64,000 nt of DNA from an uncultured delta proteobacterium (GCA_963778575.1 CAVZUV010000008.1:86746-150745), one strand, 5' to 3'; positions 11,195 through 58,617 are shown, counted from the stretch's first letter. Made by a program: numbers and translations. The notes: generated by a model not told the origin, from the letters alone.

Positions 11195-11237
11195 AAGATT
11201 TAAGATTGCAAGGGAGTTTATCTTTAGGAGGGGTGAC

Positions 11238-16085: not shown

Positions 16086-16088
16086 AAA

Positions 16089-19285: not shown

Positions 19286-19401
19286 ATAATTTGCATGATA
19301 AAATTCATCAACAGCATAAAACGGAATTTAATGAAATCGTTACCAATCTTCAATTTTGAATAAACATCATCGATAAAACGTGTTCTTATCACGGCCAATT
19401 T

Positions 19402-36658: not shown

Positions 36659-36671
36659 GAGGTTACCATTC

Positions 36672-37058
36672 ATGTTTGAAGACAAAAAAAAGCCTATAAA
36701 GATCCTTTTTGTGGATGATGAAAAAGGGTTTGTGGACGTCATATCCAAAAGAATGTCCAAACGAAACATTGAAGTTACCAAAGCCTACAGCGGCAAAGAT
36801 GCGTTGCAGGCTTTGAGGAAGACGGATTTTGATGCGGTGGTTCTGGATCTGAAGATGGAAGATATGGACGGCATCGAAATTTTAAAAATCTTTAAAAAAA
36901 TCGTTCCGGATCTTCCCGTAATTATGCTCACAGGGCACGGGTCCGAAGAAGCGGCCAGAGACGGTTTACGGCTCGGGGCCTCGGATTACCTGACAAAACC
37001 ATGTGAATTTGAGGAACTCATTGTAAAAATAAAAGATGTTGTTTCATCCGGGAGGTGA
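36672..37058 (+). CDS. single-domain response regulator
   Basis: ILFVDDEKG ... AVVLDLKMEDMDG ... LTKP. Confidence 0.9.
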   Translation: MFEDKKKPIKILFVDDEKGFVDVISKRMSKRNIEVTKAYSGKDALQALRKTDFDAVVLDLKMEDMDGIEILKIFKKIVPDLPVIMLTGHGSEEAARDGLRLGASDYLTKPCEFEELIVKIKDVVSSGR

Positions 37059-37507
37059 CGAAATTGGAAGCCTTGAAAGTTCTTTTTGTAGATGACGAAA
37101 TCGATTTTTTGGAAACACTGATGAAGCGCATGAAAAAGCGCGGCGTGGATGTCGCAGGGGTCGGAAGCGGCGAAGAGGCACTCGATTATTTGAACATGCA
37201 TCGGGCAGATGTGGTTGTGCTGGATGTCAGAATGCGGGGTATCGGGGGAATAAATGCGTTAAAGGAGATAAAGAAAATAGATCCTTTGATGGAAGTCATT
37301 ATGTTAACCGGTCACGCCAGCATAGAAGCGGCCATAGAAGGCATGGAATCGGGTGCTTTTGATTATCTTATGAAACCGGCGGATTTTGATGAGCTTTTTT
37401 ACAAGATTCAGGACGCTTTTAAAAAAAGAACCATACAGAAACAAAAAATTGAAAAACTTGGAAATCTCAAACTGACGGATCAAAAGAAAGGAGCGATATC
37501 AACGTGA
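37055..37507 (+). CDS. single-domain response regulator
   Basis: GTG start overlapping the upstream stop by 4 nt. VLFVDDEID ... VVVLDVRMRGIGG ... LMKP. Confidence 0.85.
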   Translation: MTKLEALKVLFVDDEIDFLETLMKRMKKRGVDVAGVGSGEEALDYLNMHRADVVVLDVRMRGIGGINALKEIKKIDPLMEVIMLTGHASIEAAIEGMESGAFDYLMKPADFDELFYKIQDAFKKRTIQKQKIEKLGNLKLTDQKKGAIST

Positions 37508-38803
37508 ACTTTTTAAAACAATGGGGACAATTTATGATGATGGGTGCAAGGGCCCATGCGCGGTGGGAGATTAGTGTATCCAATACCATTTTTAGCGATA
37601 AAAAACGGCTGTTAATTTTAGGCTTGCTGACCATCCCCATTATCTTGGGAGGCATAGCGTTTGCAGACCAGATCGGCGGGGCGTTGCCAAAATTATTGGG
37701 CGGCAAAAAGGCTTACAGTCCTGCGTTTTACAGTACAGGCATATTTGTCGTCTCCATTCTTATCGGACTGGGCGCCGGGCTGATTACCGGATGCATCGGC
37801 GCCGGCGGCGGATTTATCATTGCACCGGCTTTGATGAGCGCCGGCGTTAAAGGCATTTTAGCGGTGGGAACCGACCTATTCCATATTTTTGCAAAGGCCA
37901 TCATGGGAAGCGTCATCCACCGGAAACTTGGGGAATATTTCCGTGGCACTGGCACTGGTCTTTTTAATCGGCGCCATTATAGGCGCTACCGTCGGCGGCG
38001 TCATTAACCGCCTATTATATGCCATCAATCCCGTGCTCAGTGACGCATTTATCACGACCGTTTACTCGGTTATGCTTGGATTCTTGGGAATTTATGCCAT
38101 GACTGATTTTCTCATGGCTAAAAGAGCAGAGCGCAAGGACTTTCATGGCAGGGAGACCCGTGGCAAAAAGGTTGAAGGCGCGGAAATGGGGGGCCTTCCC
38201 AAAAAGCTCCAGGCTGTCAATCTTCCTCCAAAAGTCAAATTCGATTATGATCTTACCCCCGAGGGGAGAAGTATTTCATGGGTCTTTTTGGTCTTAAGCG
38301 GCGGGATGGTCGGATTTGTGGCGGCCATCATGGGCGTTGGCGGCGGCTTTTTGACATTTCCGATTTTTGTTTATGTTCTGGGCGTTTCCTCCATGACTAC
38401 GGTAGGAACCGACATTTTCCAGATTGTGTTCACCGCCGGTTATGCCGCCATCAGCCAGTATGCGATTTACGGATTTATTTTCTACACGCTTGCCATGGGG
38501 ATGCTTTTGGGGTCTTTGGTGGGGATCCAGGTCGGGGCAATTGTGACTAAGGTCGTTCGCGGCATCACGATCCGCGGGTTCTACGCCATGGCGGTCCTCG
38601 CCGGTTTTGTTAACCGGGTCTTTGCACTGCCGGCCAAGCTGGGTGCCATGGATATCATTAAGATATCAAAAGGAACCGGAGCTCTACTGGAAAAAATTGG
38701 AATATGGGCATTTTTCGTCGTAATATTGGGATTCGCGATATGGGTAATCGGCACGTTTTTAATGAATATCCGAGTACTTAAAGGTGGGGAGGCTGAATCA
38801 TGA
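37504..38803 (+). pseudogene. TauE/SafE-like permease paralog interrupted by a 1-nt frameshift in a G4 run (37930..37933)
   Basis: ORFs 37504..38007 and 37889..38803 together align along the whole of 14805..16085. Frame A reads ..GSVIHRKLG and frame B continues NISVALALVFLIG, where the paralog has HKKLGNVNYRLAIAFVVG. Removing one G restores a single ORF. Confidence 0.7.
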
Positions 38804-39486
38804 TAGAAAAAAAGAAAGAATTTTTTGGCGGCCTGGCATTGTTAATCGGATTTGCAGTCATATTGATCATCATCTTTTCCCCGATCTTTGAGGGACAAAA
38901 CGGTCTGAAATATTTAGACAACTTATACAATTCCATCTCAAAGGGGTCGGCCTATTACATTCCAAAGGTAAAAAAGGAAATAAATACGTTTGCCGGTACA
39001 TCTGTCAATGTAACCATTGCAATGGCGGACGATGGCCAGGCCCAGCAAACAGCCGCTTTGTTAATGAAAGGCGACGCCCTGGTCAATGTGTCCGGAACCC
39101 AATTGAAGATCGAGGGAGATCTGGCAAAAATCTTATCAAACTGTCTTGCCGATGCCGACAGCATGTACATCAATGACGGGCAAACTGTTGCTGCCAAATA
39201 CGGCTATAACGAAAGGCAGGTCCTGTATAACTGGTGGCAGGCGCTCAAGGCCCTGAATAAGAATTTAACCAAGCAAAAACAGTTCAAAGCAGCCAGTGCC
39301 GTTGATACGGTTGCAACTAAAGCAGTGGAGACTTCTTACAACTACTACCGAATCGAGCCCCAGAAAATATCCGATCGCTTCTTTATTGTCTTCTTTTCTT
39401 TGGTATTTTATGTCATCTATACGCTCTGGTATGGTTTTGCAATTATGTTCATGTTTGAGGGATGGGGTCTGAAGCTGGAACATTAA
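38800..39486 (+). CDS. conserved hypothetical membrane protein, partner of the TauE-like gene (paralog of 16089..16796)
   Basis: 228 aa with the same TM topology and shared blocks (KYGYNERQVLYNWWQALK vs RYGYAGKEVVLQWWLAFK). 4-nt overlap with the upstream gene. Confidence 0.7.
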   Translation: MIEKKKEFFGGLALLIGFAVILIIIFSPIFEGQNGLKYLDNLYNSISKGSAYYIPKVKKEINTFAGTSVNVTIAMADDGQAQQTAALLMKGDALVNVSGTQLKIEGDLAKILSNCLADADSMYINDGQTVAAKYGYNERQVLYNWWQALKALNKNLTKQKQFKAASAVDTVATKAVETSYNYYRIEPQKISDRFFIVFFSLVFYVIYTLWYGFAIMFMFEGWGLKLEH

Positions 39487-44279: not shown

Positions 44280-46283
44280 CTAATTCAACACCAAATCGAT
44301 GACCTCTTCCAATTCATTGATTTCGATGATCTGAATATCTTTTTTAATATCCTCGGAGATATCCTTGATGTCCGAATTGTTTCTGGCCGGGAAAACCACG
44401 GATTTGACACCGGCCCGGTGCGCGGCCAGGACCTTTTCCTTGACGCCGCCCACAGGCAGAATCCTTCCGCTTAACGTCAACTCGCCGGTCAGCGCGACGT
44501 TCCTTTTGCAGGAACGGTTCGTTATCAGGCTGATGAGCGCTACGGCGATGGTCACGCCGGCGGACGGACCGTCTTTAGGGATCGCGCCGGCAGGCACATG
44601 GATGTGAATGTCATGGGTTTCGAATAGGCTGTCCGGGATATTGAAAGCATCAGCGTGGCTTCGAATATAACTCATCGCCGCGTGAGCCGATTCCTTCATC
44701 ACGTCTCCCAATGACCCGGTGAGAATAAGATTGCCTTTTCCTTTCATTTTGGCGGCTTCAATAAAGATGATCTGGCCTCCGGCTTCCGTCCATGCCAGTC
44801 CGGTGGCCACGCCCACCCTTTCTCTGGCTTCTGCAATCTCGAAATAAAACTTTTGAGGGCCTAAAAAATCTTCCACCATTTCCGGCGTTAGATGGGTCGC
44901 TCCGTCTTTATACGCCCCGCGCAATGTTTCACGGGCGATTTTACGGCAAATGGATGCAATCTGACGTTTGAGATTTCTCAAACCCGCTTCCCGGGTGTAC
45001 TCCCGGATGATCTTATGGATGGTCTCCGGCGTGAAAACCGGCGGGTTTTCGGTGAGCCCCGCTTCTTCGATTTCTCTGGGGATTAAATATCGGGTTGCGA
45101 TTTTTGCTTTTTCTTCTTCCGTATACCCCAACAGGGTAATCACCTCCAGGCGGTCCAGCAGGGGGCCCGGAATAAGATCCAGGGCATTTGCAGTGGCGAT
45201 GAACATCACACGAGACAGGTCAAAGGGAACATCCAGGTAATGATCCGTAAAATGCGTATTCTGTTCGGGATCAAGAACCTCCAGCAAGGCCGCGGCCGGA
45301 TCCCCTTTAAAATCACCGCCGATTTTGTCGATTTCATCGAGCATAATCACGGGATTCTTTGTTTCCGCACGGCGTATTTCCTGAATAATTCTTCCCGGCA
45401 ACGCACCGACATAGCTTTTACGGTGCCCTCTTATTTCAGCCTCATCCTTCATGCCGGCCAGAGATATGCGAACAAATTTTCGTTCCAAACTCCTGGCAAT
45501 CGACATGCCCAGCGATGTTTTTCCGGTGCCGGGAGGGCCGGCAAAACAGAGTACCGGTCCTTTGGGCTCTAAACGAACTTTTTTCTTATACAATGCTTTT
45601 TGGATGGTTGAACGGATTTCATCGAGCCTTAACGGTTTGGTCAGATAATGGTATGATCCTTTTTTCATCGCCTCAATGGCCGTTGATACGGTGGCATACC
45701 CTGTGATGATAATCACTTCGGTACTTGGGTTGACCGCTTTGGCTTTTTCCAGAACCGTCATGCCGTCGACTTTTCCCATTTTGAGATCCGTGACGATAAC
45801 ATCAAAGGCACTTTTTTCCAGAAAATCCAACGCCTCTACACCATCGGAAGCGGTATTGACGTGATAGCCGTCTTTTTTAAAAACATGTTCCAGATTCTGG
45901 CGGGTAATTTTTTCATCATCCACCACCAGTATCTTGTGTTGGCCCGACATCTTGAGAATCCTGACGGAAAGATGCTCCAAAATGCGGTCTTTTATGTTGG
46001 CCAGTCCAAAATGATCTTCATCGAGGATGGATTCGGCCCGTTTAATATCGAGGTTGTCATTGGTCATTTTGTTCCAGGGCAGACTCAACAGATAATCGAT
46101 ATAGTTGATGCCGATGGTATATTCAGTGCTTGAAGGGGAGGTTTTGGTCAGCCGCTCGAGTTCTTTGTGGACGACTTTTTCTACCGGTTCGGGCATTTTG
46201 GCCCTTTGTACGTCTTCTTTAAGTTCATTGAGTTCCGACGGCAGTTCCTTCATTTGTCCTTTTTCCTTCTTAAATATTCGCAT
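44280..46283 (-). CDS. lon: Lon-type ATP-dependent protease lacking the N-terminal substrate domain and carrying an inserted receiver (REC) domain
   Basis: 667 aa. Lon linker LDEDHFGLANIKDRILEHLSV, then REC (ILVVDDEKITRQNLE...VIVTDLKMGKVDG...LTKP), then Walker A GPPGTGKTS, and the protease motif PKDGPSAGVTIAVAL. Confidence 0.85.
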   Translation of the reverse strand: MRIFKKEKGQMKELPSELNELKEDVQRAKMPEPVEKVVHKELERLTKTSPSSTEYTIGINYIDYLLSLPWNKMTNDNLDIKRAESILDEDHFGLANIKDRILEHLSVRILKMSGQHKILVVDDEKITRQNLEHVFKKDGYHVNTASDGVEALDFLEKSAFDVIVTDLKMGKVDGMTVLEKAKAVNPSTEVIIITGYATVSTAIEAMKKGSYHYLTKPLRLDEIRSTIQKALYKKKVRLEPKGPVLCFAGPPGTGKTSLGMSIARSLERKFVRISLAGMKDEAEIRGHRKSYVGALPGRIIQEIRRAETKNPVIMLDEIDKIGGDFKGDPAAALLEVLDPEQNTHFTDHYLDVPFDLSRVMFIATANALDLIPGPLLDRLEVITLLGYTEEEKAKIATRYLIPREIEEAGLTENPPVFTPETIHKIIREYTREAGLRNLKRQIASICRKIARETLRGAYKDGATHLTPEMVEDFLGPQKFYFEIAEARERVGVATGLAWTEAGGQIIFIEAAKMKGKGNLILTGSLGDVMKESAHAAMSYIRSHADAFNIPDSLFETHDIHIHVPAGAIPKDGPSAGVTIAVALISLITNRSCKRNVALTGELTLSGRILPVGGVKEKVLAAHRAGVKSVVFPARNNSDIKDISEDIKKDIQIIEINELEEVIDLVLN

Positions 46284-46553
46284 GATAGGATTCCTCTATT
46301 TTCCGTATACAATCAGATTCAACTGCCCCGCGCAATAATTTTTTGCTGTGGGTCTGCCCGCCAATAATAGGCGTTACAATACGCAACGAGACCTTCTTTT
46401 TTTGCAATATTGAATAACTTTCTAATATTAAAAGAGATATTTTCATCATCCAAAGAACCATTGCAGATTGCAACGTTTTTATAGGAGGTGATTATAATGT
46501 TAATATCGATATAAATATAATGTTATCAATTAGATATATATTTTCGGCGGCAT

Positions 46554-46568
46554 TGGCACAAGAGTTGC
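46554..46568 (+). promoter_or_regulatory. sigma-54 (-24/-12) promoter
   Basis: TGGCAC-AAGAG-TTGC is a perfect consensus. The predicted start near 46580 excludes the track start at 46576. Confidence 0.7.
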
Positions 46569-46620
46569 TCTACCAATGAACAACAGCGAAAAAAAACATT
46601 GCACAATGGAGGATTCACCC

Positions 46621-46797
46621 ATGTTTAAATTCAAAGAGACTTTCGACAGATTGATGGCGGCAATTACCTTTGCCCAGGCCAATGAGCATGAGATGGCGCT
46701 TGATATCATGCATGACCGTCCGGAAAGCGAATCCCGGAAAAAGGCCGAAGACCGTGTTCGGCGCAGTGAAGAAACCCGTCCGGAGATGCGTATTTAA
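46621..46797 (+). CDS. small protein (58 aa) with TFA(E/Q)A(G/N)E motif
   Basis: GGAGGA RBS 8 nt before ATG 46621. MFKFKETFDRLMAAITFAQANEHEMALDIMHDRPESE... Confidence 0.55.
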   Translation: MFKFKETFDRLMAAITFAQANEHEMALDIMHDRPESESRKKAEDRVRRSEETRPEMRI

Positions 46798-46834: not shown

Positions 46835-47335
46835 ATGAAAAGCGTATTGTTAACCATAGACGGCATGACCCCCGACCAAAAGGCATTCGAGTATGCGGTG
46901 TCTCTTTGCAAGCGGATACAGGCGGAGCTGAGCATATTCCAGATCATCAGACCCCGGTACTATCGCAAGTATATGAAAAAGATTCGAAAAAATGCCTTGC
47001 TTGCCAAAAAGCTCGTTGAAAGCGCCATAATAGCGGCAACCTTTGCGGAAGCCGGTGAGCACGAGACGGCTTTGGATATAATGACTGAGGCCTCGAAGCA
47101 GATTGAACATCTCATTCAGGAATCGGAAAAAGCAGGTGTTCATTGTCGCTTTTCGATTACGTCGGGGAATCCGGAAAAAGAGATCGTCGAATATGTCAAC
47201 GACCATCGGGACGTTATTTTGACCATCTACGATGTTTTCGGTGGCAGCGGAACCGTCGAAAGCTTTGAAAAGAAAAATACCCTTGCGAAGATTAAAAGAA
47301 ATTTATCGGTTCCCCTGGTTACGGTTCACGGTTAG
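46835..47335 (+). CDS. Usp-like protein with an internal TFAEAGE motif insert
   Basis: ATG 46835 after an AAGGA RBS. MKSVLLTIDGMTPDQKAFEYAVSL (Usp-like N-terminus), then AATFAEAGEHETALDIM, then Usp-like C-terminal strands. Confidence 0.65.
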   Translation: MKSVLLTIDGMTPDQKAFEYAVSLCKRIQAELSIFQIIRPRYYRKYMKKIRKNALLAKKLVESAIIAATFAEAGEHETALDIMTEASKQIEHLIQESEKAGVHCRFSITSGNPEKEIVEYVNDHRDVILTIYDVFGGSGTVESFEKKNTLAKIKRNLSVPLVTVHG

Positions 47336-47383: not shown

Positions 47384-47941
47384 ATGGCTGGGATTTTTGG
47401 AAGAATCAAACGAAAATTGAGCAAAACCGGCAATAAAATGGAGAAATATCATGAAGCGATTACCTTTGCCGAAGCCGGCGAATCCGAATATGCCGTAACG
47501 TCAATGGCTGAAAAAAAAGAGGCTCAGGCGCCCACAAAACTGCTGGTTATGGGCAGAGAAAGCGATTTTTCAAAAGAGATTATCGATTATGCCCTGGAAA
47601 TGGCGAAGCGGATGTCTTATGACATTCTGGCCTTAAATACGGCGCCGCTGTCCTGCGAAACATTTAAGCTATTTTCATCTTCTCGCAACCAGGTCTGTGA
47701 AGAGTTTTCGGCCATGTCCAAAAAAAATGCCGGGTTGTTTCAGGAAGCGGCTGCCGAAAAAGGAATTGCTTTTCATCACATTGTAATGTTCAGCGAGCCT
47801 GAAGAAGCGCTGGAATCCATCACCAGAGAGCATAAAGAAATCGCTTTTGTAGTGTCGGAAAGCGTGGAAGACCGAGGGGAAAGCAGGGTCGAAGAGGGTG
47901 AGCGTCTACGCCGAAATCTTTATGTTTATTCCATGGTCTAA
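47384..47941 (+). CDS. Usp-like protein with an N-terminal TFAEAGE motif
   Basis: AAGGAGGAGG RBS. HEAITFAEAGESEYAVTSM, then KLLVMGRESDFSKEIIDYALEMAKRMSYDILALN (Usp-like fold without an obvious ATP motif). Confidence 0.65.
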   Translation: MAGIFGRIKRKLSKTGNKMEKYHEAITFAEAGESEYAVTSMAEKKEAQAPTKLLVMGRESDFSKEIIDYALEMAKRMSYDILALNTAPLSCETFKLFSSSRNQVCEEFSAMSKKNAGLFQEAAAEKGIAFHHIVMFSEPEEALESITREHKEIAFVVSESVEDRGESRVEEGERLRRNLYVYSMV

Positions 47942-48145: not shown

Positions 48146-48685
48146 TTATCCGATGATCATAATGACTTCGCCGGTGGCGACCTCCGAATCTTTTTGAACC
48201 CGAATCATCTGAACAAAACCATCCATGCTACTGGTAATATTATTTTCCATTTTCATGGCTTCCATGGTCGCTACGGTTTGGCCCTTGACCACCGGGTCTC
48301 CAACTTTCACCTTGATATCCATGATGCGTCCGGGAATCGGTGCCACAATTTCACCCGCGGTCTGCACTTTTTTGGGAGACCGCACCTCGATTCGGCCCAT
48401 TGTCGGTGACGATACCCTGGGAGGTATTGGCGCCGGCTTCGGGGACGGTGCCGGTTTCGCGGATGTCGCCGGTTTCGGAGTTGCGGTAGTCACCGGTACA
48501 GCAGCATATGGCGACGCAGGAGCCGAAGGCAAAGATCCGGTTGCGACGTCCTCGTAGTTTTCAATCAGAATGTCAAAGGGTTGGCCATCGACGGTTACCT
48601 GGGCAATGCCTTCTTTGATGTCATTGATTTCAATCTCAAATTTTCGGTCGTTGACTGCAATTTTGTATTTCATAAAATGCCTCAT
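48146..48685 (-). CDS. biotin carboxyl carrier subunit of Na+-translocating decarboxylase
   Basis: Ala/Pro-rich linker and the C-terminal biotinyl motif VATMEAMKMEN. ATGA overlap with the upstream gene. Confidence 0.85.
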   Translation of the reverse strand: MRHFMKYKIAVNDRKFEIEINDIKEGIAQVTVDGQPFDILIENYEDVATGSLPSAPASPYAAVPVTTATPKPATSAKPAPSPKPAPIPPRVSSPTMGRIEVRSPKKVQTAGEIVAPIPGRIMDIKVKVGDPVVKGQTVATMEAMKMENNITSSMDGFVQMIRVQKDSEVATGEVIMIIG

Positions 48686-49614
48686 CGATTCTGCAAGCGA
48701 TTACTGCGGTTCGTAAGTATGGATCGAGCATTCATGATCCGTTCACGGCCTTGCCGGACCCAGGGCGAAATCTCCGGCTTAATAAAATGGGGGGTTGTCG
48801 TGGGTCGATGTGCTGAAAAATGCAAATGCAAGGCCGCACAGACAGCTGCGGCCAGTTCCGGTTCAACGGACTCGGCCGGTTGAATATCGGGTGCCGGGGC
48901 TTTTGGCTGCGATAGAATCTCTTTTGCTTTTTTCTTGTCTAACATCTGAAAGACCCTTCCCGAAATGATCAGGCCGATCATTAGGATGGACAGGACCAAA
49001 AAAATACCGAAGAACCGGATAAAAAGGGTACCCAAGGCATATCCCCAAAAAGAGTCCTTGGGTCCTCCCTCAAGCGTAATCCGGCCGTTGACCGCGCCGT
49101 CACTGTCAAATGGTCCGCCGTCCTTTACGGAAATCGTCAGTTTTTGGACCAGGTCGGGAAGGCTTAGATTCTGCGCGTCAGCGTTTACCCAGGGTTCTTT
49201 TGACGTTGGGTTGAATACCCAGTACTCGGTCGAGCTGGTGAAAAAATTCGACGTTATGGCTACCTTGGCCTCTCCGCCCGGAGAAACTTTGTCGATCTTG
49301 ATCACAAAAAGTTCGGACTTGAAATCCTTATTGTCGACGCCGGGACCGGCAGCCTCTTTAAAATCCATACCTTCAACATCGATGAGGTCGCCGCCTGAAA
49401 CCTGGAACTGAATAGAAACGCTGGTGCTTTTTGCACGAGGAATGAGCTTGGCCGTGATGATATCTCCCGCACGGGTGAATTCGGGTTTGGGCTTTTCCAG
49501 ATCTTCACCAAAAGCCGCCCAAACCTGGGTCCGTGGCGCCAAGACAATCAACATTAATGCCAAAATGAACCACGTCCAAATTCTTTTGAAAAATTCATCA
49601 GGTAAACTCGTCAT
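48682..49614 (-). CDS. OadG/MmdD-like small-subunit homolog fused to a ~190-aa N-terminal extracytoplasmic domain
   Basis: C-terminal part: TM helix FIRFFGIFLVLSILMIGLIISG plus PELAAAVCAALHLH, as in decarboxylase gamma/delta subunits. N-terminal part: a signal anchor and a beta-rich domain with DGGPFDSDGAVNGRITLEGGP. Confidence 0.6.
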   Translation of the reverse strand: MTSLPDEFFKRIWTWFILALMLIVLAPRTQVWAAFGEDLEKPKPEFTRAGDIITAKLIPRAKSTSVSIQFQVSGGDLIDVEGMDFKEAAGPGVDNKDFKSELFVIKIDKVSPGGEAKVAITSNFFTSSTEYWVFNPTSKEPWVNADAQNLSLPDLVQKLTISVKDGGPFDSDGAVNGRITLEGGPKDSFWGYALGTLFIRFFGIFLVLSILMIGLIISGRVFQMLDKKKAKEILSQPKAPAPDIQPAESVEPELAAAVCAALHLHFSAHRPTTTPHFIKPEISPWVRQGRERIMNARSILTNRSNRLQNR

Positions 49615-49623
49615 AATGCTCTC

Positions 49624-50772
49624 CTACTTGAACATGGCGATGAACATTCCTGCCGCGGAGGCAGAACCGATAACGCCGGCAAGGTTGGGGCCCATGGCAT
49701 GCATGATGAGCCAGTTATCGGGGTCGGCTTTCTGGCCTTCCACTTGAGAAACCCGGGCGGCCATGGGTACTGCGGAAACCCCTGCGGAGCCGATAAGAGG
49801 GTTCATCTTTTCTTTTAAAAACAGATTCATGATGTGGACGGTCAGGATACCGCCGAAGGTACATATAATAAAATCCAAAAGCCCAAAGCCGAAAATCAGC
49901 ATCGGTTTCCAGCTCAAAAAGACATTGGCCTGCATGGTCGCTCCTACCGAAAGCCCCAACAGTATCGTGACAATGTTCATCATGGCGTTTTGAGCTGTTT
50001 CGCTCAGGCGCTTCACCACACCGCATTCGCGCATAAAATTTCCGAACATGAACATGCCCATCAACGGCGCTACGGCAGGAATCAGAAGAATAATGAAAAT
50101 CGTCGCAATGAGCGGAAAGAGCAGCTTTTCTTTTGCGGAAACGGGCCTGAGCTGCCGCATTTTGATCCGGCGTTGTTCGGGGGTGGTCATCAGACGCATG
50201 ATGGGCGGCTGTATGAGGGGAACCATGGCCATGTAAGAATAAGCGGCCAACGCATTGGGGCCTAACAGCTGCGGTGCGAGCATGGCGGTCAGGTAAATCG
50301 TGGTGGGGCCGTCCGCGCCGCCGATGATTCCCACCGACGCAGCTTCTTTTAATGTAAAACCGAAAAAGAGGGTCCCGCAATACGTGATGAACACCCCGAG
50401 CTGTGCCCCGGCACCCACGATCAGCGTTTTCGGATTGGCGATCAGTGGTCCGAAATCGGTCATTGCTCCCAGCCCCAAGAAGATCAGGCATGGGATGATT
50501 TCCCACTGCACACCGTATTTATAAAAGGCTCTGATGAGTTCGGGGTCGCCGTGTTCGGTAAAGCCCATGAGCGGTGCCAGGGGAAAGTTCACCAAAAATA
50601 TTCCAAAGCCGATGGGAACGAGCAGCAGCGGTTCATATTCTTTGGCGACGGCGAGGTAAAGGAAAAAAAAGGAAATGAGGATCATGATCACCTGGCCCAC
50701 CTCCAGGTTCGGTATGCCTGTCTGCGTTAGAAGGATGCTCTTAATCAGTTCAAATACTTGATCCCAGCTCAT
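49624..50772 (-). CDS. Na+-translocating decarboxylase beta subunit (OadB/MmdB/GcdB family)
   Basis: 382 aa and polytopic. GAMTDFGPLIANP and IGGADGPT motifs. Confidence 0.9.
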   Translation of the reverse strand: MSWDQVFELIKSILLTQTGIPNLEVGQVIMILISFFFLYLAVAKEYEPLLLVPIGFGIFLVNFPLAPLMGFTEHGDPELIRAFYKYGVQWEIIPCLIFLGLGAMTDFGPLIANPKTLIVGAGAQLGVFITYCGTLFFGFTLKEAASVGIIGGADGPTTIYLTAMLAPQLLGPNALAAYSYMAMVPLIQPPIMRLMTTPEQRRIKMRQLRPVSAKEKLLFPLIATIFIILLIPAVAPLMGMFMFGNFMRECGVVKRLSETAQNAMMNIVTILLGLSVGATMQANVFLSWKPMLIFGFGLLDFIICTFGGILTVHIMNLFLKEKMNPLIGSAGVSAVPMAARVSQVEGQKADPDNWLIMHAMGPNLAGVIGSASAAGMFIAMFK

Positions 50773-50795
50773 ATAACGGTCTCCTGTTTAAAGGT

Positions 50796-52346
50796 TTAAA
50801 GGGGAATGTTTCCGTGTTTCTTTGGAGGGTTGGTATCTCGTTTATTGCTGAGCATCCTTAACGCCTGGATGATTTTCCACCGGGTATCCGCCGGATCGAT
50901 GACCTCATCGATATAACCGTGTTCCGCAGCCCTGTATGGATTCGAAAATTTATCCCGATAGTCGTCGATCAGTCGCTGTCTTTCCGTTTCAGGATCTTCG
51001 GCTTTTTTAATCTGACTGCGGCAAATGATATTCACGGCGCCGTCAGCGCCCATGACCGCAATCTCTGCATTGGGATACGCCAAGATGATATCACCCCTAA
51101 GATGTTTCGAGCTCATGACAATATAGGCGCCGCCGTAAGCCTTGCGGGTAATGACGGTCACGCGCGGCACGGTGGATTCGGCAAATGCATAGATCAACTT
51201 GGCGCCGTGCTTGATAATTCCGCCGTGTTCCTGGTGGGTACCGGGCATGAATCCCGGGACATCCTCAAAAATAACCAGCGGGATATTAAAACAGTCGCAA
51301 AAACGGACAAACCGGGCGCCTTTATTGGAGGCATTGATGTCGAGGACTCCGGCCATTGCAGCGGGTTGGTTGGCGACAACTCCCACCGGCATACCGTCAA
51401 ATCTGCCGAAACCGACAACGATGCTGGGTGCCCAGTGTTCATGCACTTCAAAAAAATAATTGTCATCCAGGCAGGCCCTAATGACATTGCGCATGTCATA
51501 GGGCTTGTTGGAGTCCGAAGGGACGATTTCGCGAATGCTCTCCTCGCGACGCATGGGGTCGTCAACCGGCGATCGCCGGGGTGGATCTTCCATGTTGTTC
51601 TGGGGCAGAAAAGACATGAGTTCCCGAATTTTTTCGATGCACGTTTCATCGTTGGGACAGGGAAAGTGCGCCACACCGCTTTTGGCACTGTGTGCCATTG
51701 CGCCGCCGAGTTCTTCCATGGTGACATCTTCCCGGGTAACGGCCTTGACGACTTCGGGGCCGGTTATAAACATATAACTGGTATTTTCAACCATAAAAAC
51801 CCAGTCGGTCAACGCCGGGGAATAGACGGCCCCTCCGGCAGAAGGGCCCATAATGGCGCTAATCTGGGGGATGACCCCGGATGCCATAACATTCAAAAGA
51901 AATATATCACCGTATCCGGCCAGGCTCATAACCCCTTCCTGGATTCTCGCACCGCCGGAGTCATTGAGCCCGATGACCGGCGCGCCGACGCGCATGGCAT
52001 GCTGGAGAACTTTGCAGATTTTTTCAGCATGGGCCAGAGAAAGAGAACCGCCGTGTGCAGTGAAATCTTGTGCAAATACAAATATTTGTCTTCCATGCAT
52101 CAGCCCATGCCCCGTAACGACGCCGTCGCCCGGGATCTTTTTATTCTCCATTCCGAAATCGGTACAGCGGTGCACTTTAAATCGATCGAACTCGACAAAC
52201 GTTCCTTCATCCAAAAGCTTGTCGATTCGCTCACGGGCGGTGAGTTTTCCTGAATCGTGCTGTTTTTGGATTCGGTCGGGACCACCGCCTTCCATGGCTT
52301 TCCGGTTCTTTCCATCGAGTTTTTCGAGTATTTCTTTTGAGTCCAT
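50796..52346 (-). CDS. acyl-CoA carboxyltransferase (decarboxylase alpha subunit, methylmalonyl-CoA decarboxylase/PccB-like)
   Basis: 516 aa with GGGPDRIQKQHDSGKLTARERIDKLLDEGTFVEFD and DSGGARIQEG. The substrate cannot be assigned from sequence alone. Confidence 0.85.
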   Translation of the reverse strand: MDSKEILEKLDGKNRKAMEGGGPDRIQKQHDSGKLTARERIDKLLDEGTFVEFDRFKVHRCTDFGMENKKIPGDGVVTGHGLMHGRQIFVFAQDFTAHGGSLSLAHAEKICKVLQHAMRVGAPVIGLNDSGGARIQEGVMSLAGYGDIFLLNVMASGVIPQISAIMGPSAGGAVYSPALTDWVFMVENTSYMFITGPEVVKAVTREDVTMEELGGAMAHSAKSGVAHFPCPNDETCIEKIRELMSFLPQNNMEDPPRRSPVDDPMRREESIREIVPSDSNKPYDMRNVIRACLDDNYFFEVHEHWAPSIVVGFGRFDGMPVGVVANQPAAMAGVLDINASNKGARFVRFCDCFNIPLVIFEDVPGFMPGTHQEHGGIIKHGAKLIYAFAESTVPRVTVITRKAYGGAYIVMSSKHLRGDIILAYPNAEIAVMGADGAVNIICRSQIKKAEDPETERQRLIDDYRDKFSNPYRAAEHGYIDEVIDPADTRWKIIQALRMLSNKRDTNPPKKHGNIPL

Positions 52347-52915
52347 GCAGTCTCCTTTGTTCGATCCACAGGGTGAAGCGGGAATGCATACCCGGTGAAC
52401 TTTTATTTAAAACAGTCATTATGTTGGCGTACGGTCAACTGAGTCCATGCGGCAACAGTTATTTTTAAACGGTCATTGGTGAATGGATTGCTCAACTGCC
52501 CTTAGCAAAAATTATGAAAGGATTCAATCGAAAAAACTGAAATAATTCTCAAATCAACATCGTTATGGGCAAAACAAAGCCTTTATGCCGGATCCGTCAT
52601 CACGGGATCGCATTAAAAATTGTCGCGACTTCCTAAATTGTTCGTCATCGCTGAAATTTAGGGTTGCGCCGGTTGAGATAGATAGTTGTTTCAATATGAA
52701 ACTTTAGGGGAAAACCGCGACAATTTGTGCCTGAAGAAAACGTGTTATAACCGTATCGAGCCCCTTTAAACATCCGTGTCGTTGAAACAGAAGATTCTGA
52801 TTTTATGTAGATTTCGGATTTTGTGTTTTTTTTGGCGGAAACCATATTCCATATTGCAAAAAATTTAAATGTATGCATTATATAACTCTTTTTAAAATCA
52901 AAAAAGGAGGTTGGA

Positions 52916-52996
52916 GTGGATACGCATTTCCTTTTTGGCCTTGTGCTTATCGGTTTTGCTTTCTGGCTGTGTTTTAAGTTCAGAAAAAAGAAATGA
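52916..52996 (+). CDS. candidate 26-aa hydrophobic leader peptide upstream of the DASS permease
   Basis: AGGAGG RBS 5 nt before GTG. (M)DTHFLFGLVLIGFAFWLCFKFRKKK. An overlapping alternative frame from TTG 52911 would give a lipobox-like LLSGC but has no RBS spacing. Confidence 0.3.
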   Translation: MDTHFLFGLVLIGFAFWLCFKFRKKK

Positions 52997-53057
52997 TCGG
53001 AGATGTCATATAGATGTCGAAATTCACACATGATGATGCAGGAAGGGATATTTAGCG

Positions 53058-54872
53058 ATGACACCTGAGATGATCTTGACAATGATTGTACTTGGTTTTG
53101 CCGTCGTTCTGTTTATTTTTGAATGGGTAAGGGTCGATGTCGTGGGAATTATCATGATGGCGTTGCTCCCGCTTATCGGCCTGATATCGCCGAAAGAAGC
53201 ATTTGTCGGCTTGAGCAGTAACGCCGTTGTCTCCATCATGGCGGTCATCATTATCGGCGCCGGTCTTGACAAGACAGGGGTCATGAACAAAGTGGCCGGC
53301 CCCATCATCAAGATGGCCGGCAACAGCGAAAAAAAAGTAATTATGCTGGTATCCGGTACTGTTGGCATCATATCGAGCATGATGCAGAATATCGGTGCCG
53401 CAGCCCTGTTTCTTCCGGCGACCCAGCGAATTTCCAAAAGAATGGGGGTACCGATATCTCGACTCCTGATGCCCATGGGATTCTGTGCCATCATCGGCGG
53501 AACCATCACGCTGGTAGGAGCCAGTCCCACCATTCTCTTGAATGATCTCATGGTTCTCGGCGGGAAAAAGCTGCAACCCTTCGGCCTTTTCACCCAAACC
53601 CCCATCGGCATCTGCTTGCTTTCCAGTGCCATCATCTATTTTATTCTTTTCGGAAAATTTATCCTGCCGGCGGCGGAAGGCGAAGCGGAAAAGGGGGTTA
53701 CGGCGCTGTTGATGGAAGCCTACCAGGGACTCGAAAATACGTTTGAAATCCATATCCCGGATACCTTTGTCGGCCCCAAGACGTTGGAGGAACTGGCCAT
53801 CAGGCCGAAATTTCTGGTGACCGTGGTGGCCGTCAGTTTTACGGCGGAAAACGAAAAAACTTTTGTGCCGAAAAGCAGTGATGTTATTTCTCCGGGAGAT
53901 AACATTGCCGTTATCGGCAAGGAAAAAATGGTTAAAATGCTTGCCGACGAATACGGATGGAAGATCAAGGGCGGGCTGGATGTTTTTGGAGAGAGCCTGG
54001 CGGTGATTAATGCCGGGATGGCGGAAACAGTGGTGTCTCCCCGGTCGGAACTGATCGGCAAAACCATGAGTCAGGTTAATTTTAAGGAAATGTACGGTGT
54101 AAACCCGGTGGCGCTGTTTACCGGCAATAAGATTATTTACAGCAACTTAACCCATGTTCGGCTGCAAATGGGCGATACGCTGTTGCTCCAGGCGCCCTGG
54201 GAGAAATTTCACATTCTAAGAAATCAGCCGCAGCCCCGGGCACTGACCTTTGCCACAGCCCTTGAAGGTGAAATCATGCGTCCGGAAAAGGCCAAACTGG
54301 CGATAACTTGGCTAGCCGTGGCCCTGGCGCAAATTATTTTTTTTAAAATTCAGCTTTCCGTGGCGCTCATGTCCGGAGCGCTGGGCATGATCATCACCGG
54401 CGTGCTCTCGGTGGATGAAGCCTATCGCGCCGTGGACTGGATGACCGTGTTTCTCCTGGCCGGCCTGATCCCCTTAGGTATTGCTTTTGAAAAAACCGGC
54501 ACGGCTGCGTTTATTGCAAAATTCGTTCTCGGGATGCTGGGTAATCCCTCACCCATCGTCTTGCTGGGGGCGGTGGGCATCATGACCTCTTTTTTCACCC
54601 TGGTGATTTCCAATGTCGGCGCAACAGTGCTTCTGGTTCCGCTGTGCATGAACATGGCGGTCATGGCCGGCGGAGATCCCCGAATGGCGGCGCTGGTCGT
54701 GGGATTGTCGGCATCCAATACATTCGTTCTTCCGACGCATCAGGTCAACGCCCTTGTTATGAGACCCGGGGGCTATCGTACCGTGGACTATGCCAAGGCG
54801 GGGGCAATTATGACGGTCATCTTTTTAACCGTGGAATTGACCATTCTCTATTTCTTTTATGGCATTCAGTGA
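53058..54872 (+). CDS. DASS/SLC13-family anion permease with two central TrkA-C domains
   Basis: 604 aa. N- and C-terminal transporter halves flank two TrkA_C-like segments (GDNIAVIGKEKMVKML and GDTLLLQAPWEKF). Confidence 0.8.
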   Translation: MTPEMILTMIVLGFAVVLFIFEWVRVDVVGIIMMALLPLIGLISPKEAFVGLSSNAVVSIMAVIIIGAGLDKTGVMNKVAGPIIKMAGNSEKKVIMLVSGTVGIISSMMQNIGAAALFLPATQRISKRMGVPISRLLMPMGFCAIIGGTITLVGASPTILLNDLMVLGGKKLQPFGLFTQTPIGICLLSSAIIYFILFGKFILPAAEGEAEKGVTALLMEAYQGLENTFEIHIPDTFVGPKTLEELAIRPKFLVTVVAVSFTAENEKTFVPKSSDVISPGDNIAVIGKEKMVKMLADEYGWKIKGGLDVFGESLAVINAGMAETVVSPRSELIGKTMSQVNFKEMYGVNPVALFTGNKIIYSNLTHVRLQMGDTLLLQAPWEKFHILRNQPQPRALTFATALEGEIMRPEKAKLAITWLAVALAQIIFFKIQLSVALMSGALGMIITGVLSVDEAYRAVDWMTVFLLAGLIPLGIAFEKTGTAAFIAKFVLGMLGNPSPIVLLGAVGIMTSFFTLVISNVGATVLLVPLCMNMAVMAGGDPRMAALVVGLSASNTFVLPTHQVNALVMRPGGYRTVDYAKAGAIMTVIFLTVELTILYFFYGIQ

Positions 54873-54909: not shown

Positions 54910-55761
54910 ATGGCAATAATCACCATTTCTCGAGGGAGTTTCAGCCACGGTCAGGAGATTGCTGAAAAGACGGCTGAAATGCTGGGGTACGAATGTGTGA
55001 GCAGAGAGATTCTGGTGGAGGCCGCGCAGCTTTTTAATGTTTCGGAAAAAAAACTGATTCGATCCCTCAATGACGCGCCCAACATTCTCGAACGGATAGT
55101 CCGCGGCAAAGAACGGTATCTCGAATTTATCAAGGCCGCACTTTTGGAATATGCCAGGAAAGGGAATGTGATCTATCACGGCCATGCCGGCCATCTTTTG
55201 CTGACCGAGATCCCCCAGGTCCTCAAAATAAGGATCATCGCCGATAAAGACGACCGGATCAAATTGTTGCAAAAACGGGAAAGCGTCACAAAAGAAACGG
55301 CAGCCGAGATCATTGAAAATGAGGATAAAAATCGAATCCACTGGACCCGGTATCTATACAAGACCGATATCCATGATCCCAAACTTTATGATATTGTAAT
55401 TAATATCGGAAACTTGACAATTGAAGACGCCTGTGAAATTATTTGTCTTGCGGCACGGAGCAAGACCTACCGAACGACCGATGAATCGAAACAAATCGTG
55501 GAAGATTTTGCCGTTGCGAGTCGGCTGCGGGCGGCCCTGCAACCGGTATGTGACGTCGACATTTTTGTAAAAAACGGGGATGTTCATGTTACGGTCGCGG
55601 CACAGAAAAGAAAAAAATCCGGCTATATCAGTCCGGCATTGCAGCGACATCTCGGCGAAGCCTATCAGGAGGATTTAACCCGGCAGATTACCGAAATTGC
55701 GCGCAACATCCCCGGCGTCAACAATGTATTCTGCCAAATCGCAATGCCCTACTATACCTGA
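54910..55761 (+). CDS. cytidylate kinase-like protein with a C-terminal BON-like domain
   Basis: MAIITISRGSFSHGQEIAEKTAEMLGYECVSREIL is cmk-like. The C-terminus has DVDIFVKNGDVHVTVAA...NIPGVNNV. Confidence 0.6.
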   Translation: MAIITISRGSFSHGQEIAEKTAEMLGYECVSREILVEAAQLFNVSEKKLIRSLNDAPNILERIVRGKERYLEFIKAALLEYARKGNVIYHGHAGHLLLTEIPQVLKIRIIADKDDRIKLLQKRESVTKETAAEIIENEDKNRIHWTRYLYKTDIHDPKLYDIVINIGNLTIEDACEIICLAARSKTYRTTDESKQIVEDFAVASRLRAALQPVCDVDIFVKNGDVHVTVAAQKRKKSGYISPALQRHLGEAYQEDLTRQITEIARNIPGVNNVFCQIAMPYYT

Positions 55762-55808: not shown

Positions 55809-57236
55809 ATGAAAATCAGCATCAGAGGGAAAATTTTTTTAGCTTTTGTCATCTTTATCTCCATCAGTGGCTTGATATGGGCACGCAGTTATTACAGCCA
55901 GTATATTCTAAATCAGAAGATCCAGATTATCGAAAGAAAGTACGACCTTTTAAACGCCATTCTTGAAGCCCGCCGGTACGAGAAAAACTACTTTCTATCC
56001 TTTGATAAAAAGAACATCATCGAAACGCTGAACTATGTCCGCCGTGCAGAGGATATCCTTCGCGATATATTGACCCGATACTCAAAATACACTCTGGCCC
56101 AAAACCTCGATGAAAGAATCGCCGAACTGGTGACCTACAAGAATTCCCTCGCCAATCTTTTGAAACTCCAAGAACAAGGGCAATTAATGGTCTCCCCGAA
56201 TACCATTGAACGCATCCGTACCCAGGGTAGAATTCTGACCAGCGAGCTGGAAAAAATCGTTACAAAAGAGAGCCAATTCATCCGAAACCTGATCGGAAAA
56301 TCACAGACGATCCATCTTTTGGCGCTGATCCCCGTGTTTATCCTTTCTGTTTTAATTGCCCTCTTTTTGATTTTCAATGTCAACCGTCCGCTGAAAACCA
56401 TTGAAAACGCCATTACCAAGATTGCCAGAGGAGATTTTAATAATATCCCGGAAATCAAAACCGGGGATGAATTTGAATCTCTGGTGACCAGTCTCAACAA
56501 TATGATCGATGAGCTGAACCAGCGGAGCAAGCAGCTCGTACAGGCTCAGAAGCTGGCTTCCCTGGGAAGACTGACGTCAGGTGTGGCGCATGAACTGAAC
56601 AATCCTCTCAACAATATTTCCACCTCCCTTCAAATCCTTATCGAGGAACTGGCGGAAAACGATCTGGAATATAAAAAAGAACTGCTGGTCGGCGCTGAAA
56701 AAGAGGTGGAACGGGGTAAAGAAATCGTTCGATCGTTGTTAGAGTTCGCCAGGGAGCGGTCTTTGAGCTTGAAACAGGTGGCTTTTAAGGATTTGGTGGA
56801 CAGCGCCATTTCTCAAGTTCGATCACAAATACCGGATAATATACATTTTAATATCGATGTGCCCGAAGATATCCGGGCCACTTTGGGGCCGCAGCGAATA
56901 GAACGGGTGTTGATCAATCTTATCGTCAATGCCGTGCACGCCATGAAAAACGGAGGAGATATTGCTATCAGGGCCAAAAATGAACGGGACAAAAATGGAT
57001 TTTCTTTCCAGGTGATCGACACGGGCGAAGGCATTGATGAAAAAATCATTTCAAAAATTTTCGATCCTTTTTTTACCACAAAAGGCGTCGGCAAGGGCTC
57101 GGGACTGGGGCTTTCCATTGTTTACGGCATCATAGAGCAGCATGACGGCAAGATATCCGTTTCCAGCGAAATCGGCAAAGGAACGACATTTACCTGTTTT
57201 CTGCCGTATCATCAACCCGGACAGCGGCGATTGTAA
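55809..57236 (+). CDS. sensor histidine kinase (TM - helical sensor - HAMP - HisKA - HATPase)
   Basis: H-box AHELNNPLNNIS, HAMP (NRPLKTIENAITKIARGDF) and GSGLGLSIVYGIIEQHDG. Confidence 0.9.
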   Translation: MKISIRGKIFLAFVIFISISGLIWARSYYSQYILNQKIQIIERKYDLLNAILEARRYEKNYFLSFDKKNIIETLNYVRRAEDILRDILTRYSKYTLAQNLDERIAELVTYKNSLANLLKLQEQGQLMVSPNTIERIRTQGRILTSELEKIVTKESQFIRNLIGKSQTIHLLALIPVFILSVLIALFLIFNVNRPLKTIENAITKIARGDFNNIPEIKTGDEFESLVTSLNNMIDELNQRSKQLVQAQKLASLGRLTSGVAHELNNPLNNISTSLQILIEELAENDLEYKKELLVGAEKEVERGKEIVRSLLEFARERSLSLKQVAFKDLVDSAISQVRSQIPDNIHFNIDVPEDIRATLGPQRIERVLINLIVNAVHAMKNGGDIAIRAKNERDKNGFSFQVIDTGEGIDEKIISKIFDPFFTTKGVGKGSGLGLSIVYGIIEQHDGKISVSSEIGKGTTFTCFLPYHQPGQRRL

Positions 57237-57246
57237 AAGGATAAGT

Positions 57247-58617
57247 GTGGATAAAAACAAAGCGATAATTCTGGTTGTTGAAGACGAAGATATTGCAAGA
57301 AAGAACCTCGAACATATTCTGATCAAAGCCGGCTACGATGTCGTTGCCGTAAACAACGGCCAAAAGGCGATGGACTTGCTTCAGTCACAAAATTTCGATC
57401 TTGTGATTACCGATCTGAAAATGGACAAAGTGGACGGCATGCAGGTGCTGCATAAAACAAAGGAACTTCAGCCTTACACCGAAGTTATCATGATCACCGG
57501 CTTTGCCACCATTGAAACCTCGGTTCAGGCCATGCATGACGGCGCTTATTATTATATCGCCAAACCCTATAACATCGGAGAAGTTCGCCAAATTACCAAA
57601 GAGGCGCTGTTAAAGCGGCGGCTTCGTCTGGAAAACATTGAACTCAAAGAAATACTCAAAAAACAGCAAAAGATTTCATCCATTGTCGGTCAAAGCAAGA
57701 TCATGATGGAAGTTCAGAAAACCCTTCAACAGATCGCCCCTTCGGATATCAATGTGTTGATACTTGGCGAAAGCGGCACCGGCAAGGAACTGGTCGCCCG
57801 ATCCATCCACCGGTTCAGTCCCCGTTCAGAGAAGGAATTCGTTGCATTTAACTGCGGTTCGTTTACGGAAGAACTCATGGCCAATGAGCTGTTCGGTCAT
57901 GAAAAGGATGCGTTCACCGGCGCTTCAAAGGCAAAGGCGGGGTTGATCAAGACAGCCGACGGCGGGACCGTCTTTCTGGATGAGATCGGAGATATGCCGC
58001 TGAGCATGCAGGTGAAGCTATTGCGCGTCATTCAGGAAAAAGAGATCTTACCGGTGGGCGGCGAAACACCGGTTCCAGTGGATGTTCGCTTTATTGCGGC
58101 CACCCATCGCGAGCTCAAGGAGGATGTGGAAAAGGGGCATTTTCGACAGGATTTGTTTTACCGGTTGAATGTCATCACCATAAAACTTCCTTCCCTCACG
58201 GAGCGGAACGGCGATATTCCGCTTCTGGCGTATCACTTTTTGTTTCAAAAGAACAAGGACATGAACAAAGATGTTCAATTGATTCAAAAAGATTGTATGG
58301 AATTACTTTGCCAGTACGGCTGGCCGGGAAATATCAGAGAGCTGGAGAATGTCATCGAACGAGCGGTCGCGCTGGCGAACGGTCCGGAAATAACCGTCAA
58401 CGAACTGCCGGAATACATCAGCAATCTTTCCATTGAAACCTATCGCCGGCATGATCAAGAGGTGCCGACCCTTGAGGAACAGGAGAAAAATTACATTAAA
58501 TGGGTCCTCGATAAATGCGAGGGAAATAAAACCAGAGCGGCGAAAATAATGGGCATCGACCGGGTTTCCCTGTGGCGCAAAATAAAAAGATTCGGCCTGG
58601 AACCTGAAGGCGACTGA
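57247..58617 (+). CDS. NtrC-family sigma-54-dependent response regulator (REC - AAA+ - Fis-type HTH)
   Basis: GTG 57247 after an AAAGGA RBS, 11 nt past the kinase stop. LVITDLKMDKVDG, GESGTGKE, the sigma-54 contact loop GHEKDAFTGA, and the HTH TRAAKIMGIDRVSLWRKIKRFGL. Confidence 0.9.
   Translation: MDKNKAIILVVEDEDIARKNLEHILIKAGYDVVAVNNGQKAMDLLQSQNFDLVITDLKMDKVDGMQVLHKTKELQPYTEVIMITGFATIETSVQAMHDGAYYYIAKPYNIGEVRQITKEALLKRRLRLENIELKEILKKQQKISSIVGQSKIMMEVQKTLQQIAPSDINVLILGESGTGKELVARSIHRFSPRSEKEFVAFNCGSFTEELMANELFGHEKDAFTGASKAKAGLIKTADGGTVFLDEIGDMPLSMQVKLLRVIQEKEILPVGGETPVPVDVRFIAATHRELKEDVEKGHFRQDLFYRLNVITIKLPSLTERNGDIPLLAYHFLFQKNKDMNKDVQLIQKDCMELLCQYGWPGNIRELENVIERAVALANGPEITVNELPEYISNLSIETYRRHDQEVPTLEEQEKNYIKWVLDKCEGNKTRAAKIMGIDRVSLWRKIKRFGLEPEGD

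Follow-up and report, generated by a model that had tools for sequence, protein, structure and literature searches.

A receiver-bearing Lon protease and a sigma-54 activator with sister receivers as candidate outputs of one sensor kinase in an uncultured delta proteobacterium

Can a single membrane sensor kinase drive a transcription factor and a protease in parallel? This question is raised by a 64,000-nucleotide stretch (64 kb; hereafter the window) from an uncultured delta proteobacterium (GCA_963778575.1 CAVZUV010000008.1:86746-150745), in which a sensor histidine kinase gene (55809..57236, plus strand) is followed by the gene for an NtrC-type sigma-54 activator response regulator (57247..58617, plus strand), and in which a 667-residue Lon-like protease with an internal receiver (REC) domain, here called REC-Lon, is encoded at 44280..46283 on the minus strand. 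A sequence-only reading of the window had proposed, from the likeness between the receiver of the regulator and that within Lon, that the kinase may phosphorylate both proteins. Phosphorylation of both receivers by this kinase is supported by the kinship of the receivers, by synteny, by a frozen DHp helix in the kinase, by sites of the DVU3305 type beside REC-Lon and by published genetics in Desulfovibrio vulgaris. We put at roughly 0.6 the probability that these genes belong to the DVU3298-DVU3305 type of stress module found in sulfate reducers and Nitrospirota, with one kinase serving two sister receivers. The shared-kinase idea is already published for D. vulgaris; what the window adds is a rearranged member of the module and family-wide comparative support.

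The window encodes nine receivers, as recognized by Pfam Response_reg, and all 36 pairs were compared by Smith-Waterman alignment with BLOSUM62. The receiver of the NtrC-type regulator (aa 5-123, 57259..57615, plus strand) and that of REC-Lon (aa 115-233, 45585..45941, minus strand) are identical at 59/116 positions (50.9%), with a score of 320, the highest of the 36; the earlier estimate of about half identity over ~115 aa is thereby borne out, and the two peptides quoted in its support are indeed encoded at 57265..57567 (plus) and 45633..45932 (minus). The same reading had held the other seven receivers to be much less similar. With exactly nine receivers present, the number seven is right, but the contrast is smaller than claimed: the tandem pair REC_36672/REC_37055 is likewise 51% identical, and REC_37055 shares 40% identity with the Lon receiver. 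A TDLKM-x-KVDGM block had also been singled out as unusual; TDLKM itself proved to be ordinary in receivers, and the distinctive part is the E/K-V before DG and the M after it (columns 56-58 and 61). Both domains score as CheY-like receivers (Response_reg, 98 and 94 bits), and the residues of the phospho-chemistry are kept in the Lon receiver (D-D, D, T and K) as well as throughout the two clades, with D/E-D at columns 8/9, D at 52 (frequency 1.00), T at 80 and K-P at 102/103 (1.00).

The likeness of Lon and partner receivers is family-wide and extends beyond the window pair. In a set of 158 receivers, drawn from 79 related loci as well as the window, Lon receivers share a mean identity of 51.0% (standard deviation 4.0) with the receiver of the neighboring NtrC-type regulator (the partner receiver), compared with 39.3% for other NtrC-type receivers of the same loci and 32.1% for all remaining receivers. 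A Lon receiver is the closest outsider to the partner receiver in 34/34 cases, and a partner receiver is the closest outsider to the Lon receiver in 62/72, the other 10 matching a frameshifted REC-Lon fragment. A neighbor-joining (NJ) tree likewise joins the two groups. Since strict monophyly is a poor statistic for a 119-column domain with wandering taxa, nearest-neighbor and quartet measures were used in place of strict-clade NJ bootstraps. The quartet of Lon and partner receivers against other NtrC receivers received 100% support, and the quartet separating Lon and partner from other NtrC receivers and the remainder received 80% (bootstrap 95% interval 51-84%; chance 33%), while a grouping of all NtrC receivers without Lon appeared in 0/300 bootstraps. 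A search of a 1.84-billion-protein library with the Lon receiver alone was swamped in its ranking by multi-receiver proteins, whose domain scores are summed, and only a few single-receiver matches are informative; the best of these outside Lon were REC-Sigma54_activat proteins at 56-57% identity. The outcome that the sequence-only reading had named as telling against it, placement of the two receivers in unrelated clades, is thus not what emerges: by reciprocal nearest neighbors, quartet support and library hits, they are mutual nearest relatives.

Residues common to the Lon and partner clades and rare elsewhere include A13, N16, E18 and H19 of alpha1, the helix that determines kinase specificity in receivers; their Spo0F equivalents are positions 15, 18, 20 and 21. 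Further shared residues occur in the beta3-alpha3 loop (E/K/V at 56-58, M61), at beta4-alpha4 (A83, T84) and in beta5/alpha5 (H98, A101, K105, V109, R110), such that the signature occupies helix alpha1 and the loops surrounding the phosphorylation site. On the kinase side, the window protein has a HAMP-HisKA-HATPase_c architecture in Pfam, with two transmembrane segments and a periplasmic region of ~150 aa. Its orthologues adjoining a partner regulator (28 loci) share a frozen DHp helix, H-E-L-N-N-P-L-[NS]-N-I-S-[ST]-S-x-Q-I-L-x-E-E; kinases that accompany other NtrC regulators have a different helix.

The three proteins have a described counterpart. In D. vulgaris Hildenborough, DVU3303 (REC-Lon), DVU3304 (kinase) and DVU3305 (sigma-54 regulator) were proposed to form a three-component general-stress system; DVU3305 bound between DVU3301 and DVU3303, as a peak in a DNA-affinity-purification chip (DAP-chip) experiment, and its orthologues were found usually to accompany the Lon response regulator (Rajeev 2011, PMC3333781). 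The regulon was later given as DVU3302-3298 and DVU3303-3305 (Kazakov 2015, PMC4641369), and the three genes DVU3303/3304/3305 show pairwise cofitness above 0.9, with the putative anion transporter DVU3299 as a DVU3305 target (Trotter 2023, PMC10102598). DVU3303 is annotated as 'ATP-dependent protease La, truncation', and the literature presents it as a Lon-domain response regulator. The window shares with this system the same three proteins, including the truncated receiver-bearing Lon, the GTTGC-N5-GCAAC motif in the intergenic region adjoining REC-Lon, and a divergent sigma-54 operon with Usp-type proteins, small hypothetical proteins and an anion transporter. It differs in arrangement: D. 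vulgaris has one Lon-kinase-regulator operon, whereas in the window the kinase and regulator come last in the divergent Usp/transporter string. REC-Lon, kinase and regulator all fall inside 14.3 kb, a looser linkage than in D. vulgaris. The activator loop also differs, reading GAFSGA in DVU3305 and DAFTGA in the window regulator.

To gauge how widely this association holds, we considered the 26 REC-Lon loci whose flanks reach 8 kb or more on each side (long-flank loci) and sought a partner within 10 kb. A partner kinase and/or regulator lies near REC-Lon in 22 of them, across at least four gene orders and two phyla; both are present in 17, the kinase only in 3 (two of these at a locus edge) and the regulator only in 2. 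The gene orders include a tandem Lon-kinase-regulator arrangement in Nitrospirota, a convergent arrangement of Lon with regulator-kinase, and a divergent regulator-kinase pair directly upstream of Lon. In the Desulfobacterales form, a string running divergently from REC-Lon comprises a small open reading frame (ORF), the universal stress protein genes Usp1 and Usp2, a CitMHS transporter, a cytidylate-kinase-like (CMK-like) gene, the kinase and the regulator. Close relatives carry these genes as one contiguous divergent unit, and the window has the same form, interrupted by a Na+-decarboxylase cluster on the minus strand (48146..52346; Carboxyl_trans, OAD_beta, OAD_gamma and a biotinyl carrier) that lies between Usp2 and the transporter. 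This cluster is present in one related locus (L001) and absent from seven others (L004, L008, L009, L011 and L023-L025).

Conserved candidate regulatory elements lie between REC-Lon and the Usp genes. Footprinting against 16 orthologous intergenic regions revealed the conservation of a sigma-54 promoter (-24/-12; TGGCACAAGAGTTGCT, 46554..46569, plus strand), which is the sole zero-mismatch match in the window and points into the small-ORF/Usp genes, together with two palindromes, our candidate enhancer boxes (upstream activating sequences, UAS; no strand assigned). Box 1 reads GTTACAATACGCAAC (reverse complement GTTGCGTATTGTAAC; 46373..46387) and box 2 ATTGCAGATTGCAAC (reverse complement GTTGCAATCTGCAAT; 46460..46474), each with one mismatch to GTTGC-N5-GCAAC. 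This is the motif of DVU3305, whose site at the DVU3303 promoter, validated by electrophoretic mobility shift assay, is GTTGCGATATGCAAC, with further sites reported; the window boxes match it in sequence, as candidate sites. Across 64 loci, at least one such site occurs within 450 bp upstream of REC-Lon in 46, at a density of 2.41/kb in that interval versus 0.092/kb elsewhere (~26-fold), and a sigma-54 element is found at REC-Lon in 36, nearly always divergent. No sigma-54 element was found in the region upstream of the transporter/kinase string (52347-53057). The only resemblance to the DVU3305-type motif in that region, which lies 5' of the CitMHS-CMK-like-kinase-regulator genes, is a perfect palindrome with two mismatches to it, GTTTCAATATGAAAC, at 52688..52702; this may represent a weak or related site, or have arisen by chance.

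At the protein level, REC-Lon combines an intact protease core with an inserted receiver. Pfam assigns Response_reg to aa 118-227 and AAA to aa 245-386, followed by Lon_lid and Lon_C, and no match to LON_substr_bdg (PF02190) was obtained in the protein. In a sequence search of the PDB, aa 1-112 correspond to residues 234-345 of Lon 7p6u and aa 240-666 to residues 351-775. Because the alignment starts at about residue 234 of 7p6u, REC-Lon is read as a LonA without its first ~233 residues, that is, without the substrate-recognition N-domain, and with a receiver of ~120 aa in place of ~5 residues where the pre-AAA helices meet the AAA+ module. The features that define LonA (MEROPS S16, endopeptidase La) are otherwise present, namely an AAA+ module, Lon lid, S16 domain and Ser-Lys dyad, and the translation contains Walker A (GPPGTGKT), the catalytic serine (PKDGPSAG) and the lysine (GGVKEK). 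Compared with canonical LonA (7P6U, 3M6A, 6U5Z), AAA+, lid and S16 align end to end (E ~1e-175) with Walker A and the dyad kept, whereas the canonical proteins possess the N-terminal ~233 residues and lack the inserted receiver; by its sequence, REC-Lon is a LonA derivative rather than a canonical LonA. The junctions on the two sides of the receiver are fixed in length by alignment, at 36 residues in 66/66 and 37 residues in 65/66 REC-Lon sequences, which argues for rigid coupling of the receiver to the AAA+ ring. At 90% identity the family falls into more than 120 clusters, which come mainly from Desulfobacterales and without exception carry PF00072, and we collected 70 REC-Lon loci from Desulfobacterota and Nitrospirota. 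A literature search found no biochemical study of any REC-Lon, and the genes are now annotated just as 'endopeptidase La'.

Structural relatives offer a model for how such a receiver might act. The closest solved relatives of the Lon receiver are the NtrC1 receivers (4l4u, 1zy2 and 1ny5; E ~1e-25), and in NtrC1/DctD proteins (1NY5, 1ZY2, 4L4U), as in REC-Lon, the receiver stands directly N-terminal to an AAA+ module; phosphorylation-controlled oligomerization is therefore a natural model. The two nevertheless differ in their linker, which is a coiled coil of ~40 residues in NtrC1, whereas alpha5 of the REC-Lon receiver enters AAA+ strand 1 within ~10 residues, and in the AAA+ module itself, which is of the sigma-54 activator type in NtrC1 and of the Lon type in REC-Lon. 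Control of an AAA+ protease by two-component phosphorylation is also established for RssB (ClpXP/RpoS) and CpdR (ClpXP), but these are free-standing adaptors acting in trans on ClpXP, while the REC-Lon receiver lies within the protease polypeptide. The regulator, for its part, has the Response_reg-Sigma54_activat-HTH_8 composition of the NtrC family (Sigma54_activat 236 bits; HTH_8, a Fis-type helix-turn-helix, 50 bits), and the DAFTGA form of its AAA+ loop recurs in 9 partner orthologues, with GAFTGA in 18. Its GTG start at 57247 is plausible from the sequence, with an AAGGA ribosome-binding site immediately 3' of the kinase stop and orthologues of 456 aa.

Taken as a working model, membrane kinase 55809..57236 would sense an envelope or periplasmic cue and autophosphorylate, and the phosphoryl group would pass, by way of its conserved DHp helix, to a pair of sister receivers that retain the same docking surface, formed by alpha1 (I-A/T-x-x-N-L-E-H-V/I) and the beta3-alpha3, beta4-alpha4 and beta5-alpha5 loops. 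The sigma-54 activator 57247..58617 would then bind the two GTTGC-N5-GCAAC boxes (46373-46474) and fire the promoter at 46554, turning on the small-ORF/Usp genes; in relatives with an unbroken unit, its targets may also include the genes for the anion transporter, the CMK-like protein and the kinase as well as its own. In the protease branch, phosphorylation of the receiver might gate hexamer assembly, pore access or substrate choice, as expected of a domain that length-invariant linkers fix in place, with pre-AAA helices on one side and the AAA+ ring on the other, in a LonA devoid of its N-domain. The present sequences show the domain architectures, kinship of the receivers, synteny, cis-elements and conservation of the docking helix, and work on D. 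vulgaris shows that the regulator binds DNA and that the three genes are genetically linked; we infer both phosphotransfer to the two receivers and an effect of phosphorylation on Lon. The proposed logic has a familiar parallel in CheA, which phosphorylates CheY and CheB, that is, one kinase with two receivers, of which one is fused to a receiver-controlled enzyme; the chemotaxis system differs in using CheA P1/P2 rather than HisKA, a methylesterase rather than an AAA+ protease, and in having no transcriptional branch.

Several observations weigh against this model, and most bear on its strongest rival, in which the receiver likeness is history only. Here the Lon receiver would be a duplicate or fusion of the neighboring regulator's receiver, no longer served by that kinase and dependent on another donor (another kinase, such as the dCache kinase at 34949..36658, acetyl phosphate, or none). 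We regard this as unlikely, yet several results speak for it. An identity of 51% by itself would not prove a common kinase, and genome-specific co-variation of the two receivers was not significant (same-genome 0.527 versus shuffled cross-genome 0.520, p = 0.06), so that the likeness could be retained ancestry instead of active constraint; as judged from these sequences, the receiver pair appears to be a static conserved interface and not one in ongoing co-evolution, and retained ancestry is compatible with this. Bootstrap values for a strict Lon-plus-partner clade are weak, at 19/100 with 158 taxa and 34/300 with 49 taxa. Neither partner lies nearby in 4 of the 26 long-flank loci (L021, L030, L061 and L067), at two loci (L037 and L047) REC-Lon is accompanied by a different pair, a single-domain REC and a kinase, and in the window itself REC_37055, which resembles the Lon receiver at the 40% level, sits beside the dCache kinase.

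Set against this, paralogous receivers that shift to different kinases are said, from work in the Laub laboratory, normally to diverge at the alpha1 specificity positions, whereas A13, N16 and H19 stay common to the Lon and partner clades from Desulfobacterota to Nitrospirota and other NtrC receivers differ there. The docking helix of the partner kinase is equally frozen, the neighborhood survives at least four rearrangements, the D. vulgaris genes cofit, and alpha1 differs between REC_37055 (D-F-L-E-T-L-M-K-R) and Lon. The dCache kinase was considered as a donor for REC-Lon and ranked low, as its two receivers differ in alpha1 and it is not syntenic with REC-Lon elsewhere. Three further reservations apply to the shared-kinase model. 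REC-Lon of the window lies 9.5 kb from the kinase and on the opposite strand, a distance explained by insertion of the Na+-decarboxylase cluster after Usp2 and ahead of the transporter. On our reading, polar transposon effects could contribute to the D. vulgaris cofitness, DVU3303 being the first gene of its operon. Orthology to DVU3303/3304/3305, finally, is drawn from architecture, motif and regulon content.

A different role for the receiver, which we consider improbable, is that of a handle for a substrate or partner. Through receiver-receiver pairing (alpha4-beta5-alpha5), REC-Lon would capture the phosphorylated or unphosphorylated regulator and degrade it, thereby ending or tuning the response, with the look-alike receiver making up for the lack of a substrate-binding domain of its own. 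The missing Lon N-domain is in keeping with this, as are the signature residues in beta5/alpha5 (H98, A101, K105, V109 and R110) and beta4-alpha4 (A83 and T84), surfaces that serve as receiver dimerization faces in NtrC1/DctD-type proteins, and so is the finding that NtrC1 receivers are the closest solved relatives. However, a protease that removes the regulator should give the opposite phenotype, whereas the D. vulgaris genes share a fitness pattern (which polarity could mask), and the strongest part of the signature lies on alpha1, the kinase-docking helix, and not on the dimer face alone. Combined with a shared kinase, the same idea yields a long shot: the receiver may set the substrate choice of REC-Lon by pairing with the receiver of its sister regulator, phosphorylated or not, and feeding the regulator into the AAA+ pore. 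If so, the kinase would switch on a transcription factor and at the same time arm its destroyer, making a pulse generator, and receiver-receiver recognition would take the place of a degron or adaptor. Very doubtful, finally, is a phosphate sink, in which the kinase would phosphorylate the Lon receiver mainly to drain the regulator branch, much as CheY sinks drain phosphoryl groups, with the protease constitutive. The evidence behind the shared-kinase model serves this reading equally, and the sequences are compatible with a Lon activity that is indifferent to phosphorylation, but the constant length of the linkers where the receiver meets the mouth of the AAA+ ring (65-66 of 66) favors mechanical coupling over a passive appendage, and a sink has no need of fusion to a 550-aa protease kept catalytically intact.

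If the shared-kinase model holds, one sensor would drive gene activation and regulated proteolysis in parallel, with a phospho-switch built into an AAA+ protease, in a module that is widespread in uncultured sulfate reducers. The comparative data from Desulfobacterota and Nitrospirota, covering the docking helix, receiver signature, linkers, enhancer and promoter, make this hypothesis sharply testable.

The remaining genes of the module are likewise recovered across relatives. First past the sigma-54 promoter is a conserved 58-aa ORF (MFKFKETFDRLMAAITFAQANEHE...; 46621..46797, plus strand), with GGAGG ahead of it at 46608-46612. Gene calls on independent contigs give it 73 aa, and homologues occur in 33 loci. 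It is followed on the same strand by Usp1 (46835..47335, 166 aa; Pfam Usp), which is syntenic in relatives and whose start, taken from the footprinting alignment, agrees with independent 166-aa gene calls, and by the Usp2-like protein (47384..47941, 185 aa), the second conserved protein of the Usp operon, for which no Pfam match was obtained. The CitMHS/TrkA-C anion transporter (53058..54872, plus strand; Pfam) heads the transporter-CMK-like-kinase-regulator string; in relatives, it stands directly between Usp2 and the kinase operon, contiguously in eight loci (L004, L008, L009, L011, L023-L025 and L034). Between transporter and kinase lies the cytidylate-kinase-like gene (54910..55761, plus strand; Pfam Cytidylate_kin2), which is kept immediately 5' of the partner kinase throughout the Desulfobacterales relatives, and this conserved position suggests a fourth, uncharacterized component of the module. 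The small ORF (AITFAQANEHEMALDIM), the interior of Usp1 (AATFAEAGEHETALDIM) and the N-terminal end of Usp2 (AITFAEAGESEYAVTSM) have a short motif in common, (A/I)-I/A-T-F-A-E/Q-A-G/N-E-H/S-E...A..., and tblastn with the small ORF matches these secondary positions in relatives too.

Individual loci show variations on this layout. A Desulfobulbaceae locus (L033) carries two REC-Lon genes (10001-12025 and 19237-20712) and two partner-type kinases. In L037, a divergent NtrC-type regulator is located directly downstream of Lon, and the single-domain receivers of L037 and L047 show a slightly raised likeness to the Lon receiver (~40%).

Elsewhere in the window, which encodes only one sigma-54 activator, near-consensus sigma-54 promoters with 1-2 mismatches occur at 1332, 14710, 19271, 23408 (minus strand), 26637 and 31158, just 5' of other operons that include Usp genes, a TauE module, a 1022-aa ORF at 19402 and an acyl-CoA synthetase-like gene at 31225. 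Two of these promoters, at 1332 and 19271, have nearly the same sequence (TGGCATATCTTTTGCG and TGGCATATCTTTTGCA). No GTTGC-N5-GCAAC box with at most one mismatch was found at these six promoters; other activators, therefore, presumably serve them. Two paralogous pairs, each of a TauE/TSUP permease and a membrane protein of ~230 aa, lie at 14805..16796 and 37504..39486. In the second pair, an extra G in a G-run at ~37930 (AAACTTGGGGAAT versus AAACTTGGGAAT) splits the permease into overlapping ORFs (37504..38007 and 37889..38803), where three metagenome contigs, 99.8-99.9% identical, have a single 432-aa ORF; the extra base reflects either an error, of assembly or in the homopolymer, or a true frameshift. 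The dCache kinase with its two single-domain receivers (34949..37507) precedes this pair.

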